Sequence record: PQ724393.1
Source: a phage
DNA: 64,000 bases
Direction: 5' to 3' (one strand)
The notes under the pieces are model-generated. The model had not been told where the DNA came from. It was given only the letters and a program-made list of their open reading frames with translations, and searched no databases. A program made the position numbers and the translations under genes. This document shows, in pieces, positions 1,706 to 50,997 of the stretch. The first letter of the stretch is position 1; the number at the start of each line of letters is the position of its first letter.

Positions 1706-3961
1706 TTAAAGCTTACAAGCTGCACAATCGTCGGCTTTAGGAGTTTCGATTTCGTAATCGTCTGTACCAGAGCCATCACGGGTATTGTGGTAGTAAAAAT
1801 TCTTGAGCCCATAATACCATCCGTACAGCAGGTCATCAAGCATTACGGACATCGGAACTTTTCCTTTCTCATAGTTCTGAGGGTCGTAATACGTATTCGC
1901 TGACGCCGATTGGCAAACCCATTTCAACATAATTGCTACTTGGGTAAGATAAGGTTTATTACCTTTCTTAGCGAGGCTCCAAGCGTAATCATAGAGGCCT
2001 TGGTTATGTTCTACATTAGGAACTACCTGACGGAAGTTACCTTCTTTAGATTCTTTAATACTTACCGGCCCACGCGGAGGTTCGATACCGTTGGTAGAGT
2101 TGGAAACTTGGCTGCTTGACTCGCATGGCATAAGTGCTGATAATGTGCTATTACGGATGCCATGTTTAGCCAGGTCTTCCCGCAACGACGACCAGTCACA
2201 AACATAGTTTGGGGCTGCGATTTGGTCAATCTTTTTATTGTACCAGTCGATAGGAAGCTCGCCTCGAGACCACTTAGTGTCTGAATAATACTCGCAAGGT
2301 CCTTTTTCTTCGGCCAACTTGATTGATGCTCGGATAAGTCCATATTGTAATCTCTCAAACAGTTCATGAGTTAAATCGTTTGCGTCTTCATAAGAAGCAA
2401 AGTTGCTTGCCAACCATGCAGCGTAGTTGGTAACACCTACACCCAAGTTACGACGTTTCTTAGCCTTCAAAGCTTCAGGAACAGGATAGCTTTGATAATC
2501 TAATAGGTTATCAAGTGCACGTACCTGTACTTCAGCGAGTTCGTTGATTTTGTCTTGGTCTTGCCAATCAAAGTTATCCAACACGAATGCAGACAGCGTA
2601 CACAATCCGATTTCAGCGTCCGGACTATTCACATCGGTAGTCGGGATAGCAATTTCACAACACAGGTTACTCTGGCGAATAGGAGCCTTTTCACGAATAA
2701 ATGGGGTGAAGTTGTTAGTGTTATCAACAAACTGAGGATAAATTCGTGCAGTGCCTGAACGTTCGGTCATAAACAATTCGAAGAGGTCGCGTGCTTTAAT
2801 ACGTTTCTTACGAATACTAGAGTCTTTTTCAGCCGCTTCATACAATTCACGGAAACGTTCTTGGTCTTCAAAATAAGAATAATAAAGCTCACCACCCATT
2901 TCATGAGGACTGAACAGCGTGATGTAATCATTTTTACCGAAACGTTCCATCATAAGGTCGTTCAACTGGATTCCGTAGTCCATATGGCGAATACGGTTCT
3001 CGTCGACACCTTTGTTGTTTTTCAGAACGAGCAGATTTTCAACTTCCAAATGCCAAATAGGATAATAAGCAGTAGCAGCGCCGCCACGGATTCCACCTTG
3101 TGAACATGATTTAACAGCAGTCTGGAAATGTTTCCAGAATGGAATAACGCCTGTATGTTTGACTTCACCCATGCCAATACGAGAACCTTCAGCACGAATC
3201 ATACCAACGTTGATACCAATACCTGCACGTTTAGAAATGTATTCAATTATTGAGTTAGCAGTTTTGTTAATAGATTTCAGTGAGTCGCCTGCTTCAATAA
3301 CCACACAAGAACTAAATTGACGGGTTGGTGTACGTGCCCCAGCCATAATAGGAGTTGGTAATGAAACCTGACGGGTACTTACAGCATCATAAAAACGAAT
3401 AATATGGGCTAAACGGTTCCCTGGCTCGTCTTGGTGTAAGGCCATGCCAATACACATGATAGCGAACTGAGGGGTTTCATAGATTTTACCGGTTGTTTTA
3501 TCTTTAACCAGATATTTCTCTTTAAGCTGCATTGCGCCAGCGTAAGTCAATTCAAAGTCACGTTCATGCTTGATATGAGATTCTAAGAAAGTAATTTCTT
3601 CTGCAGAATATCGAGACAGCAATTCTGGGTCATATTTACCTTCGTTAACACAATAGGAAATATGGTCAATAAAACTACGCGGTTCAAACTGGCCATAAAC
3701 TTCTTTACGCAGGGCAAACATCAATTGCTTTGCAGCAACATACTGATAATCAGGCTCTTCAACCGAGATAAGGTTGGCCGCGACCTTAACAGTCAAATTC
3801 TGGATATCTTTGGTAGTCATACCATCACGAAGGTGGGATTTGATTTCTTCGTATAATTCGTAGGGATCGATTTGGGTTCCTTCACAACCCCAAGTCAGAA
3901 CTTTAATAATTTTTTGTGCGTCAAAATCTTGGGATACACCACTACTCTTTTGTACTTGCAT
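1706..3961 (-). CDS. nrdA: Ribonucleotide reductase alpha subunit
   Basis: 751 aa ORF, class Ia RNR large subunit with C-terminal CxxC tail; synteny with nrdB/td. Confidence 0.9.
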   Translation of the reverse strand: MQVQKSSGVSQDFDAQKIIKVLTWGCEGTQIDPYELYEEIKSHLRDGMTTKDIQNLTVKVAANLISVEEPDYQYVAAKQLMFALRKEVYGQFEPRSFIDHISYCVNEGKYDPELLSRYSAEEITFLESHIKHERDFELTYAGAMQLKEKYLVKDKTTGKIYETPQFAIMCIGMALHQDEPGNRLAHIIRFYDAVSTRQVSLPTPIMAGARTPTRQFSSCVVIEAGDSLKSINKTANSIIEYISKRAGIGINVGMIRAEGSRIGMGEVKHTGVIPFWKHFQTAVKSCSQGGIRGGAATAYYPIWHLEVENLLVLKNNKGVDENRIRHMDYGIQLNDLMMERFGKNDYITLFSPHEMGGELYYSYFEDQERFRELYEAAEKDSSIRKKRIKARDLFELFMTERSGTARIYPQFVDNTNNFTPFIREKAPIRQSNLCCEIAIPTTDVNSPDAEIGLCTLSAFVLDNFDWQDQDKINELAEVQVRALDNLLDYQSYPVPEALKAKKRRNLGVGVTNYAAWLASNFASYEDANDLTHELFERLQYGLIRASIKLAEEKGPCEYYSDTKWSRGELPIDWYNKKIDQIAAPNYVCDWSSLREDLAKHGIRNSTLSALMPCESSSQVSNSTNGIEPPRGPVSIKESKEGNFRQVVPNVEHNQGLYDYAWSLAKKGNKPYLTQVAIMLKWVCQSASANTYYDPQNYEKGKVPMSVMLDDLLYGWYYGLKNFYYHNTRDGSGTDDYEIETPKADDCAACKL

Positions 3962-47394: not shown

Positions 47395-47586
47395 TTATAT
47401 TACGAAAATAGCTTTATCACCATTTGCATCAGTGACTTCATAGGTATCTTCGTGGTAAAGTGGGATAATCCAAGTCACACCATCACCAGCAATAATATGG
47501 ATAGCTTCTTGGTCTTTTGATACGATTTCATATTCTTCGAACAATTCGAATACAGAAATCTTAGAGCCCGTACACATTGCACTCAT
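47395..47586 (-). CDS. Hypothetical protein
   Basis: 63 aa ORF. Confidence 0.35.
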   Translation of the reverse strand: MSAMCTGSKISVFELFEEYEIVSKDQEAIHIIAGDGVTWIIPLYHEDTYEVTDANGDKAIFVI

Positions 47587-47782
47587 ATTGTTCCCTTCTT
47601 TTAATCAGTTGACGATGAGCCTTTTTAAGTTTACGAAGCTGGCGCTTAGTCGGCCGTGCAACATAAGCTTGAGTAGTTACTCGTCCAAAAACACCATACT
47701 TAGGTGAAGGAGAATCAATAAAGACTTCCCACTGGCAGGAGTATCCGTATACCGCTTTAGAGAATTGAGTTAAGACAAACAT
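47561..47782 (-). CDS. Hypothetical small basic protein, PTKRQ-motif family member 1
   Basis: 73 aa; ARPTKRQLRKLKK motif shared with ORF 48573-48812. Confidence 0.4.
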   Translation of the reverse strand: MFVLTQFSKAVYGYSCQWEVFIDSPSPKYGVFGRVTTQAYVARPTKRQLRKLKKAHRQLIKRREQYECNVYGL

Positions 47783-47783
47783 A

Positions 47784-48218
47784 TTAACCTCGATTCATAA
47801 AGGCATTAAAAATCTGGTCGTCAATTGAATAAACTGGAGCTTCCAGAATTTTCAACAGACTGTTTTTGATATACTTGCTAGGGATATCCATATTAACGCG
47901 GTCGTTCAATTCGTTGTCCGGGTGGATATCTTTAAATTCGAATCCTTCAAATTCAACCTTGTCCGGAAACCCGTCAGCGAAAAAATAAACCAATTGGTGC
48001 ATTGCATTGAGCGAAAATAATTTAGACTTAACAGCAATAAGTTCTTGCCAATGGTTTAATTCTCTGTTAAGAAGTTTATGAGCGAATACAATTCTATCGT
48101 CGCTATCAACAATAAAATAACCTAGGTACTGATGGTCGTCGCTCCAAAACATCCTGTATGCTTGTGCATTCGGATTTTTACAACGAAGCTTTTTAATAAC
48201 CAAAGTTCTGTTAATCAT
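47784..48218 (-). CDS. Hypothetical protein, 144 aa (track ORF trimmed to MINRTL)
   Basis: Longer reading would overlap sp. Confidence 0.4.
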   Translation of the reverse strand: MINRTLVIKKLRCKNPNAQAYRMFWSDDHQYLGYFIVDSDDRIVFAHKLLNRELNHWQELIAVKSKLFSLNAMHQLVYFFADGFPDKVEFEGFEFKDIHPDNELNDRVNMDIPSKYIKNSLLKILEAPVYSIDDQIFNAFMNRG

Positions 48219-48219
48219 T

Positions 48220-48513
48220 TTACTCACCTGTAACCTCTTTAACGATGTTTTTGTTATCGAAATTAGCGTCACAATACAAAACATAGTTGTACTGCATAAC
48301 ACCGGTTGAAGCTAATTGGTCGGACACTTCTTTAACCATGTCAGGACGGTCACGTTTAGTGATGTTCATGATATCGGCATAAATCTGATGTTCAACATCA
48401 GTTTGGTCGGCAGTCATAGACCACTCACAAAGGTCTTTATCCAATCCGGCCGTTACTGGAGCTGTACCACATGATGCTACGGTAATAATTGCTGCGATTA
48501 ATAACTTTTTCAT
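48220..48513 (-). CDS. sp: Periplasmic superinfection-exclusion protein Spackle
   Basis: 97 aa; signal peptide then DKDLCEWSMTADQT...VMQYNYVLYCD as in T4 Sp. Confidence 0.7.
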   Translation of the reverse strand: MKKLLIAAIITVASCGTAPVTAGLDKDLCEWSMTADQTDVEHQIYADIMNITKRDRPDMVKEVSDQLASTGVMQYNYVLYCDANFDNKNIVKEVTGE

Positions 48514-48540
48514 TTCAATCTCCTCGTTAGTTGATAGGTC

Positions 48541-48571
48541 TATAGTATCACCACCATAGACCGTTGTAAAC
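48541..48571 (-). promoter_or_regulatory. T4-type early promoter upstream of sp
   Basis: GTTTAC (48566-48571) plus TGATACTATAGACCTATCAACTAAC block. Confidence 0.55.
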
Positions 48572-48572
48572 T

Positions 48573-48812
48573 TTATTTTAACGAATCTTCCAAATAAATT
48601 TTACGGAATTTACGTTTTGTCTGACGAATCTGACGTTTAGTAGGCTTCACAGGAAATTCGAAGAACTCCACGTATTCCTGTTCATAATCATTATGACCTA
48701 CTGAAAGAACTAGTTCCCAGCTGCTTACGGTGCGTTGGATAAACATATTATGCTTACCAAAAGATTTATTCCAAAAAGAACTAGGAGTTGGCTTCATTAG
48801 TACAATATTCAT
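48573..48812 (-). CDS. Hypothetical small basic protein, PTKRQ-motif family member 2
   Basis: 79 aa; VKPTKRQIRQTKRKFRK motif. Confidence 0.4.
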   Translation of the reverse strand: MNIVLMKPTPSSFWNKSFGKHNMFIQRTVSSWELVLSVGHNDYEQEYVEFFEFPVKPTKRQIRQTKRKFRKIYLEDSLK

Positions 48813-48953
48813 TTATTCCTCGCCTTCATGTTTATGAGCAAATTCTTCTAATTCACGGTCACAATCTAAACAGGTTGCATTATCCCAAGCATCAAATACT
48901 GCTCGGTCTTCACTTACTGAACAACCACACACTTCACATTCAACTTCTTCCAT
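48813..48953 (-). CDS. Small zinc-ribbon protein, 46 aa
   Basis: Hand-translated; CxxC ... CxxC (CEVCGC ... CLDC). Confidence 0.3.
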   Translation of the reverse strand: MEEVECEVCGCSVSEDRAVFDAWDNATCLDCDRELEEFAHKHEGEE

Positions 48954-49157
48954 TTAGATTTCCTCAATGCGGGCATCATATTCAAAAACTTTATTGTCAT
49001 TAACAAAGGCTTTCACCAGTGCATTATTCACTTCTGCATACTGCACTGTAACCCATTCAATCATTTTTTGGTCACTAACATCCAGCGCAGTTTCTTTGGT
49101 AAACATATTACCGTTTTCAAACCAACCAATAAATACTACGATCTCTAATTTAAACAT
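48954..49157 (-). CDS. Hypothetical protein
   Basis: 67 aa ORF. Confidence 0.4.
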   Translation of the reverse strand: MFKLEIVVFIGWFENGNMFTKETALDVSDQKMIEWVTVQYAEVNNALVKAFVNDNKVFEYDARIEEI

Positions 49158-49487
49158 TTAGATTTCCTCGCAGAAGGCCCATTCAGCATGATAAACCGTA
49201 GCGCCTTTAGTATCATTTAAACAAACCACATCTACCGGAGCAATTACACGATAAAGACGGGGTTCTCCTCCCACTGAACGAGCTGCACGTCCAGCATAAA
49301 TCTTAGCCAAACCGATATCTTCAGTAAAGAACACTCGATTCAGGTTTTTCTTACGACCGGTTTCAGACAAAACTCCTGTTTCCTCAGGAGGACAAAGCAT
49401 ATTACCGATATTAGCAACACTACAACTTCCATGGTAATACACTTTATATTCTGCTTTACAGTCGATGGTTTTCATTTTGTTCTCCAA
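49158..49487 (-). CDS. Hypothetical protein with HGS ... Y ... E pattern
   Basis: 109 aa ORF downstream of an early promoter. Confidence 0.45.
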   Translation of the reverse strand: MENKMKTIDCKAEYKVYYHGSCSVANIGNMLCPPEETGVLSETGRKKNLNRVFFTEDIGLAKIYAGRAARSVGGEPRLYRVIAPVDVVCLNDTKGATVYHAEWAFCEEI

Positions 49488-49496
49488 GTTGATAGG

Positions 49497-49528
49497 CCTA
49501 TAGTATCATGCCTATAGGAGATGTAAAC
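49497..49528 (-). promoter_or_regulatory. T4-type early promoter
   Basis: GTTTAC (49523-49528) plus TGATACTATAGGCCTATCAACT block. Confidence 0.55.
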
Positions 49529-49536
49529 CCTTAAAA

Positions 49537-49557
49537 CAAAAAAGGAGCCGAAGCTCC
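49537..49557 (-). terminator. Intrinsic terminator GGAGC-UUCG-GCUCC + U6 downstream of gene 41
   Basis: Stem-loop immediately after gp41 stop, followed by U-run. Confidence 0.6.
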
Positions 49558-50997
49558 TTAAAATTTGATAGATGCTGCTAAATCGTCTAAATCGCTTCTA
49601 TTAACACGCGACTGGCGATTGACCTCGGCTTGACGATTCATCTCACCTGTAGCCTCACGAACGGTGTTCACTGGGCCTGGGTTAGAATCATCTTCAACTT
49701 CGTACCAACGTTGATTTCCTTTCTTAACACCAATCTTAAATTTGTTGTAGTAGCTCTTATCGCCATAACGAGATTTAAGCTGCTTAACCATCTGCATACC
49801 CATCTGAGCAAACTCTTCTGTCTCGACCACGCCTAACATGAAGTCTGCAGTATGTGCAATACCAAAGGATTCAGCGATATCAGCCATATCGATTTCGGCT
49901 GCAACGTTCGCGCCACGAGTAGTCTGGGCCGCGGTCCACAGCAATAATTTCTTCTCTACTGCAAGGCCACGTAGTTCTTCGGCAACCATCTTAATCAATC
50001 CGTAACTGTTTTCAGAGAAAACTTTCGTACGAGACGATGCACAGATAGCCAAGTAGTCAACGATAACAACCTGAGGGACAAAGTTTTGTTTGAGCTTGTA
50101 TTCGTTTAATAATGCACGGAAGGTATCAGCATTAGCACCACCAGTAGGATACTGTTTAATCTTTAAACGACCTAAAGTAGCAGTTGAACGCCATTTATCC
50201 ATCTTAGCTTTATATTCGGGCCACGAGACATGACCATCATCGATATCATCCAGTGATACGTCCAGAAGGTTGGCATCAATACGCTTAGCACATACTTCCT
50301 CTGCCATCTCCATGGAGATATAAAGAACATCGTAACCGGATTGAAGGTAATCAGCAGCCAATGAACAAAGACCAAGAGACTTACCTACGTTTGTTCCTGC
50401 CAACAATACGTTTTCAGTACCAAACTCGGCACCGCCCTTGGTAATCTTATTCAGAATATTAAGTCGGAATGGAACTTTACGTGCTTTATCGGAATAACTT
50501 TTGAATCGTTCTTCATAGTCATCCATCCAGTCATGACCTAATTCAGAATCGAAACAAATCGATAATGCATCACGCATGATATCTGGAATAGCACCGATAC
50601 CTGGAAGTTTTCTATTTTGTTGCTCAACCGGAAGGTCGGCATTAGTTTGGATTTCAATGATTTTTGAAGTTGCATTATACATCGCTGCTTTCTGAACGTA
50701 TTTCTCCGTCTCTTTAACCAACCATTCTTGGTCTTCAGGTCCGGCATTCAGCGAACTTAAAAGCTCTTTAGCGCCTTGGTGTTCAACTTCCGAAAGCGTA
50801 CTGTTATCTAATGCAATGCTCAGCGCGTTCTTAGAAGGCACTGCATTATATTCATTGACATGTTTTTTAATTTCTTTGAAAAGGGTCTTTGCAGGACCCT
50901 GGTCAAAATAAGAATCATTCATATAAGGCCAGACCTTAGTGAAATAATCACTATTGCCTAGCAGTTGAGCCAAAATAGTTTCTACCACTTCCACCAC
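49558..50997 (-). CDS. 41: Replicative DNA helicase gp41 (DnaB-like)
   Basis: 479 aa; Walker A GTNVGKS and DnaB-family motifs. Confidence 0.9.
   Translation of the reverse strand: MVEVVETILAQLLGNSDYFTKVWPYMNDSYFDQGPAKTLFKEIKKHVNEYNAVPSKNALSIALDNSTLSEVEHQGAKELLSSLNAGPEDQEWLVKETEKYVQKAAMYNATSKIIEIQTNADLPVEQQNRKLPGIGAIPDIMRDALSICFDSELGHDWMDDYEERFKSYSDKARKVPFRLNILNKITKGGAEFGTENVLLAGTNVGKSLGLCSLAADYLQSGYDVLYISMEMAEEVCAKRIDANLLDVSLDDIDDGHVSWPEYKAKMDKWRSTATLGRLKIKQYPTGGANADTFRALLNEYKLKQNFVPQVVIVDYLAICASSRTKVFSENSYGLIKMVAEELRGLAVEKKLLLWTAAQTTRGANVAAEIDMADIAESFGIAHTADFMLGVVETEEFAQMGMQMVKQLKSRYGDKSYYNKFKIGVKKGNQRWYEVEDDSNPGPVNTVREATGEMNRQAEVNRQSRVNRSDLDDLAASIKF

Follow-up and report, generated by a model that had tools for sequence, protein, structure and literature searches.

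Two small basic proteins encoded on the minus strand of a 64,000-nucleotide stretch of phage DNA (PQ724393.1, hereafter the window) are diverged copies of TifA, the ToxN inhibitory factor A of phage T4, which corresponds to gp61.4 and to the Pfam family DUF7279. This membership is firm. The first copy, tifA-A or A (47561..47782, minus strand, 73 amino acids, JS98 orf29 type), bears a short C-terminal extension ending in EQYECNVYGL. The second, tifA-B or B (48573..48812, minus strand, 79 amino acids), has no such extension and is, by both position and sequence, the ortholog of T4 61.4/tifA. A sequence-only reading had singled out these two open reading frames (ORFs), with exact coordinates. The window belongs to a JS98-like Dhakavirus, a relative of T4. 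The 2.5 kb around the pair are 96% identical to MN04 and JS98, two Escherichia phages (Dhakavirus, Tevenvirinae), and the pair lies in the anti-toxin island between genes 41 and 61. Both proteins are probably RNA-binding counter-defence proteins of the TifA type, and anciently diverged paralogs within this island. The identification puts a characterised counter-defence family in the place of two "hypothetical protein" labels and of a wrong "nucleotidyltransferase" label; the latter is attached to A-type tifA in several GenBank records (vB_EcoM_005 at 3001-3222, AnYang, SHP1) and has no sequence support.

T4 61.4 was identified as TifA (NP_049652) by Srikant, Guegler & Laub in 2022, T4 evading toxIN, a toxin-antitoxin (TA) system of type III, through dmd-tifA amplification (PMC9391042). 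The TifA protein, and not its mRNA, neutralises the ToxN endoribonuclease, with which it co-precipitates; tifA is an early gene in T4, and the region between genes 41 and 61, which holds dmd and adfA, was termed the anti-TA island (PMC9391042). What the literature already contains therefore includes the family with its motif and its function in RNA binding, and even the two proteins in question.

Membership in the TifA family

Both proteins match the DUF7279 profile (PF23945) far above its gathering cutoff of 24.5 bits, A through residues 9-59 (E 9.5e-19, 67.5 bits) and B through residues 23-73 (E 8.6e-20, 70.8 bits), and these matches cover 51-52 of the 53 profile positions. Among the PHROG families, A matches phrog_3272 (E 8.6e-25) and B phrog_2375 (E 2.1e-35), each of them also matching the family of the other. 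In Smith-Waterman comparisons with T4 TifA, A reaches z = 19.2 and B 22.7, the similarity spanning most of the length in both cases; with RB69 TifA the values are z = 10.7 and 12.6, respectively. The N-terminal parts taken by themselves still resemble T4 TifA (z = 7.7 for A and 11.7 for B), a score reached by none of 5000 shuffles. Tequatrovirus 61.4 genes are also recovered by tblastn, at E 4e-5 with A and 7e-9 with B as the query. B is annotated as gp61.4 in JS98 and T4 61.4 occupies the same map position, while the GenBank record of VR5 labels both genes "similar to T4 gp61.4".

An exhaustive profile search was needed to bring out the family, a word-indexed protein search yielding just three close relatives of A and five of B. 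Among 1.84 billion representatives, the profile search found 33 clusters at E <= 1e-3; one of these was discarded as spurious, a 21-residue match within a protein of 1932 residues. No literature was found under the name DUF7279, and the link to TifA came through gp61.4. Within the window, the profile hidden Markov model of the family detects A and B only, without any third tifA copy among the 1241 six-frame ORF segments, and the same two are the only ORFs with a PT[KR][KR]Q motif.

The Pro-Thr cap followed by a basic cluster is the conserved signature of the TifA family (PMC10853763). It lies in A at residues 44-62, PTKRQLRKLKKAHRQLIKR (47597..47653, minus strand), and in B at residues 57-78, PTKRQIRQTKRKFRKIYLEDSL (48579..48644, minus strand), both segments being putative RNA-binding surfaces. 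In the two proteins, PTKRQ[LI]R runs on into a stretch rich in Lys and Arg, as initially noticed. The longer form of the motif proposed at that time, R-x-x-K-[RK]-K, is complete in B, whereas its final Lys is replaced by Ala in A. Both proteins are basic overall (pI 10.1 for A and 9.9 for B), and Lys and Arg are concentrated after the Pro-Thr cap, with 10 (A) and 8 (B) of them in the first 20 residues. Across 40 family members the Thr and Arg of the motif are invariant, and its Pro, Lys and Gln nearly so.

Compared with T4 TifA, both proteins thus belong to the same Pfam family and carry the same Pro-Thr-capped basic helix. In B, the helix sequence PTKRQIRQxKRxFRKI is nearly identical to that of T4 TifA. 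The WELVL strand is shared with T4 TifA as well, and so are, for B, the N-terminus (MNIVLMKPTP in B, MHIVLFKPTP in T4) and the slot, on the downstream side of dmd and before sp. B differs from T4 TifA by one additional helix, predicted at residues 12-29 and placed between strands 1 and 2, by an acidic NDYEQEY loop in place of PPFGRV, and by the lack of a C-terminal extension. A shares with T4 TifA the FGRV loop (VFGRV in A, PFGRV in T4) and a short Cys-containing C-terminal extension, but has a shorter N-terminus and loop and occupies a different slot, after sp and orf30. RB69 TifA (68 amino acids), which is the strongest characterised ToxN inhibitor and was used for the RNA-binding work, belongs to the same family with the motif P53 T54 K55 R56 R59. 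Like B, it has no C-terminal extension. Its loop position 41 is a His (PHGKV), where A has a Phe and B has no equivalent motif.

Structure predictions were run with AlphaFold2 on a 40-sequence family alignment from which the T4 sequence was left out. The model of A (mean predicted local distance difference test score, pLDDT, 82) shows strands at residues 2-8, 17-24 and 34-40 and a helix at 46-62, with block-mean pLDDT values of 95 and 91 over residues 41-60, the basic-helix region. In the model of B (mean pLDDT 81), a strand at 2-6 is followed by the inserted helix, 12-29, predicted at lower confidence, then by strands at 32-38 and 47-53 and a helix at 59-78; block means over residues 51-79, again the basic-helix region, are 93, 95 and 83. 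A and B are thereby predicted to share the published TifA architecture, a three-stranded sheet with a C-terminal basic helix (PMC10853763). The A model retrieves from BFVD the TifA homologs of EcS1, PM2 and VR25, with template modelling scores of 0.71-0.78. No solved relative was found in the PDB, either by sequence (best E 0.43, a basic stretch of a ribosomal protein) or by fold with Foldseek (best E 0.75), so that no structural analogy with a solved structure can be claimed.

RNA binding and candidate toxin targets

The RNA-binding properties of the family were dissected on T4 and RB69 TifA, which bind RNA, and also single- and double-stranded DNA in vitro, via the Pro-Thr-capped basic helix (PMC10853763). 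The P53A/T54A and K55A/R56A/R59A mutations each abolish RNA co-purification, ToxN co-immunoprecipitation and rescue, and ToxN and TifA assemble into a large ribonucleoprotein that is enriched in 16S rRNA and keeps ToxN inert (PMC10853763). Residues equivalent to these five are found in A as P44 T45 K46 R47 R50 and in B as P57 T58 K59 R60 R63. Given this P-T-K-R-x-x-R conservation and the homology to RNA-binding proteins, the nucleic-acid binding foreseen in the sequence-only reading is supported as a prediction, and A and B would be expected to bind RNA by the residues required in T4/RB69 TifA.

The proposed mechanism would involve small early proteins in which a three-stranded beta-sheet packs on the C-terminal Pro-Thr-capped helix lined with Lys and Arg. 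By analogy with T4/RB69 TifA, this helix would bind RNA, used as a "glue", while the sheet and loop face would recognise an RNase toxin of the host, which is ToxN-like in those cases that have been characterised. This toxin would then be trapped on abundant cellular RNA as an inactive ribonucleoprotein complex, leaving the phage transcripts uncleaved.

Several observations weigh against this reading, first among which are the results already published for nearly identical proteins. The genes tifA-JS98 and tifA-vB_EcoM_005 were cloned for the neutralisation panel of Guegler et al. 2023 (Table S2, PMC10853763). B is identical to the genomic translation of JS98 gp61.4 at 79 of 79 positions; the supplement text for tifA-JS98, as stored, deviates from this translation in what looks like a transcription slip. 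A is identical to the vB_EcoM_005 TifA at 71 of 73 positions (97%; differences G13S and L49I). Co-expressed with seven toxins, six of the ToxN family and one TenpN, neither of the two cloned genes neutralised any of them (PMC10853763). This is a difference from T4 TifA, since E. coli ToxN and the remaining panel toxins were neutralised by neither the A nor the B type, and more generally only the TifA proteins of T2, T4, T6 and RB69, and not the other homologs, neutralised any of them (PMC10853763). Expression was confirmed for two homologs without rescue, including the vB_EcoM_005 protein (PMC10853763). ToxN inhibition by A and B is consequently unproven, and negative for the toxins tried. In addition, the RNA binding attributed to A and B would be that of their homologs; the neighbour-joining tree that separates them (see below) is rough, being built on about 75 columns without bootstrap; and the promoter assignments in their neighbourhood are consensus matches only.

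The same absence of rescue, zero of seven toxins for near-identical proteins, would be expected if A and B were TifA-fold general phage RNA chaperones, or modulators of mRNA protection or translation acting early in infection, rather than toxin neutralisers. TifA shows little sequence preference in its binding of RNA and DNA and is associated with 16S rRNA (PMC10853763), and neighbours of the pair handle mRNA stability (dmd, together with goF in Shigella phage SP18), which also goes in this direction. This explanation is nevertheless unlikely. Inhibition by T4/RB69 TifA is toxin-specific and lost with single ToxN surface substitutions, on which grounds simple RNA coating was argued against (PMC10853763). 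The locus is moreover an anti-TA island with dmd and adfA, and in close relatives the B slot has had its allele replaced or lost, a behaviour typical of arms-race genes and not of housekeeping RNA chaperones.

Within a TifA-type counter-defence role for A and B, their divergence gives a clue about specificity. The loop region and the N- and C-terminal decorations were linked to toxin specificity, with F41 of the T4 TifA loop as a specificity position tuning the affinity for ToxN (PMC10853763). Since the RNA-binding helix is kept but the loop and the terminal decorations of A and B are wholly different, the two proteins most likely cover different toxin variants, as judged from their sequences. 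By analogy with the characterised members, each would neutralise its own toxin. The lack of toxin rescue, taken together with the strong purifying selection described below, means that A and B may target effectors outside the ToxN family. It is thus conceivable, although rather doubtful, that they act on RNase or other RNA-acting defence effectors beyond this family, or jointly on one target. If true, the TifA fold would be a general scaffold for inhibitors of the "RNA-glue" kind, in which the specificity loops can be swapped, and the Dhakaviruses would hold a two-slot toolkit, A conserved and B exchangeable. The Dhakavirus tifA pair would be a handy set of probes with which to find new RNase defences of E. 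coli, ToxN-like or not, also useful for mapping the part of TifA that sets its specificity.

Two slots and two lineages

Paralogs, or two copies in one phage, are not mentioned in either TifA paper (PMC9391042, PMC10853763), and the panel homologs were treated as coming from different phages and different clusters (PMC10853763). Yet vB_EcoM_005, like the window, has both copies side by side in one genome. The additions made here are small: two ancient tifA lineages in two putative early transcription units, with one slot conserved and the other exchangeable. The residual value is likewise modest, namely two divergent tifA genes kept in Dhakaviruses.

Both copies are found in JS98, vB_EcoM_005, IME281, VR5 and QL01, and in further Dhakavirus genomes of IMG/VR. 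T4 has a single copy, in the B slot. Kanagawavirus CIP9 and Marfavirus P545 also have a single copy, located just upstream of the small ORF at the 61.1 position and of the primase gene, which corresponds to the A slot; in CIP9 the copy is preceded by sp and one further ORF, the same arrangement as for A in the window. SP18 and two other related contigs have A only. The A-type gene occurs in 69 phage records with an identity of 90% or more. In the B slot, 48 records have the 79-residue JS98 type (at least 80% identity) and 11 have a 98-residue VR7 type with about 50% identity, and the slot can also be empty. The A slot is conserved, and the B slot exchangeable.

In the neighbour-joining tree, B groups with the TifA proteins of VR7, T4 and RB69, and A with the Kanagawavirus and PM2 types. 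Outside the helix, A and B are about 19% identical. A recent tandem duplication was considered and rejected, because A and B are not nearest relatives of each other and single-copy phages use either slot. The tree placement and this use of either slot indicate that A and B are two old lineages. Two adjacent divergent TifA-family genes were also observed in each of two unrelated IMG/VR viral contigs (L030, 4941-5811; L032, 4884-5674), which suggests that multi-copy tifA arose more than once.

Strong purifying selection acts on both genes. The proportion of synonymous differences (pS) is 0.14-0.46 as against 0-0.06 for nonsynonymous ones (pN) in both genes, and pN/pS is about 0-0.1 for A among seven phages. 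Between A and its IME281 counterpart there are seven synonymous and no nonsynonymous differences; between B and that of JS98, eight and none. One of the copies could in principle be redundant, or a decaying duplicate without a function of its own, and the absence of B from SP18 and the two other contigs does imply that B is dispensable in some phages. Such an account is very improbable in view of this selection, of the intact state of both ORFs in every Dhakavirus examined, and of the separate Shine-Dalgarno sequence of each copy; the low identity outside the helix and the different clades, moreover, do not fit a recent duplicate.

The direct resemblance between A and B is more limited than their common resemblance to TifA. 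BLASTP aligns only 20 residues, in the basic helix (E 1e-4). Their Smith-Waterman score is 50, as against 23.0 +/- 4.2 for 5000 composition-preserving shuffles, none of which reached it. The N-terminal parts compared alone have no pairwise significance (z = -0.5), and this includes the W-E-[LV] core by which the two had been considered similar. This core is nonetheless shared at the profile level: hhalign aligns the A clade with the B clade at 94.8% probability (E 5.5e-8), with residues 16-60 of A opposite 30-73 of B, and puts QWEV opposite SWEL. The Trp and Glu are invariant when A and B are aligned with the eight homologues closest to them, and the Trp throughout the 40-sequence family alignment.

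The paralogy first suspected from the tails is therefore borne out by a single Pfam family, reciprocal PHROG cross-matches, the hhalign alignment and the same predicted fold. A purely compositional resemblance between two unrelated Lys/Arg-rich tails, to which the 20-residue alignment and the N-terminal halves might have pointed, has practically nothing left in its favour, and was rejected: no shuffle reached the pairwise score, the Pfam, PHROG and hhalign matches run through the beta-sheet core, the N-terminal half of each protein matches that of T4 TifA, and the predicted folds are the same. The alignment and profile comparison that had been proposed for exposing mere compositional bias thus gave a similarity exceeding composition, as judged from shuffles, hhalign and Pfam.

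The surrounding island and its transcription

All genes of the island are on the minus strand. In the order of transcription, the gene 41 helicase is followed by a terminator-like hairpin, a 109-residue ORF, dmd, a 46-residue ORF and B, and then by sp, a 144-residue orf30-type gene, A, a 63-residue ORF, 61.1 and the gene 61 primase. B is thus located downstream of dmd, with one ORF between, and upstream of sp, as in T4. A lies in the second slot of the same island, after sp and orf30. The pair had been described as flanking sp. This holds for B, whose place is immediately upstream of sp; between A and sp, however, stands the 144-residue gene, so that the pair flanks sp plus orf30 and not sp alone. 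The spackle gene sp itself (48220..48513, minus strand) matches Pfam T4_Spackle (E 3.4e-42) and phrog_1586.

Two T4-early-type promoter matches, nearly identical to each other, are found on the minus strand. The first (49500..49527, TTTACA-16-TACTAT with a TG) stands just after the terminator-like hairpin (49542-49559) that follows gene 41, and the second (48542..48570, TTTACA-17-TACTAT with a TG) between tifA-B and sp, which are 59 nt apart; GTTTACA...TGATACTATAGRCCTATCAACT is common to both. From these positions, the first would drive orf109-dmd-orf46-tifA-B, with B as the last gene, and the second sp-orf30-tifA-A-orf63-61.1. The number of promoter-like matches in the region is not above that in shuffles, and promoter function is therefore only inferred, the assignments not being proven. 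A GAGG is present 5-6 nt before the ATG of A and of B, within the end of the preceding gene. The location of the pair in an early block of small genes, as suggested from the sequence, is consistent with the two promoter matches and with the early expression of tifA in T4 (PMC9391042); early expression is thus predicted here.

The dmd gene (48954..49157, minus strand; Pfam Dmd, E 5.1e-20; phrog_2102), coding for the RnlA/LsoA antitoxin, would belong to the same operon as tifA-B. Dmd (T4 61.5) is, like TifA, a small early phage protein of this island directed against a host RNase toxin (RnlA/LsoA). Unlike TifA, to which it is unrelated in sequence, it binds its toxin directly, with no RNA as third partner (PMC10853763). 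Between dmd and tifA-B, the 46-residue ORF (48813-48953, minus strand) is inserted without any gap. It contains two CxxC pairs, in a zinc-ribbon-like arrangement, and matches phrog_13952 (E 3.7e-28); it is annotated in QL01 and IME281 and unannotated in JS98 and VR5. In SP18 (1141-1696), dmd is directly followed by sp, without the B slot and the 46-residue ORF, and goF plus an extra ORF are found between gene 41 and the homolog of the 109-residue ORF.

The 109-residue ORF (49158-49487, minus strand) comes first behind the terminator of gene 41 and the early promoter match, and belongs to phrog_2110 (E 1.7e-60). Its match to Pfam Arr-ms, the rifampin ADP-ribosyltransferase family, is below threshold (E 0.029, 15 bits for a cutoff of 25); this weak Arr-like match could not be strengthened, and no PDB sequence match was found for this ORF. 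It may, from this resemblance, be a small ADP-ribosyltransferase-like protein, in an island that in T4 also counters the DarT ADP-ribosyltransferase.

The orf30-type gene (47784..48218, minus strand, 144 amino acids, ATG at 48218; JS98 orf30; phrog_8539, E 2.5e-92) occupies the slot of T4 adfA (61.2). Apart from its last 14 residues (the final 45 nt, 47784-47828, minus strand), it has no relation to AdfA: its C-terminus, SIDDQIFNAFMNRG, is identical to that of T4 AdfA at 14 of 14 positions, and the Pfam AdfA match is limited to this tail (E 0.008). The last codons, ..AAT CGA GGT TAA, include the GAGG Shine-Dalgarno sequence of the next gene. This 3' end looks like a conserved junction where different cassettes swap into the island. 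On the other side of tifA-A, its 3' end and the start of the 63-residue ORF (phrog_3249), which are in different frames, have 26 nt in common (47561-47586, minus strand), an overlap kept in JS98, VR5, QL01 and SP18.

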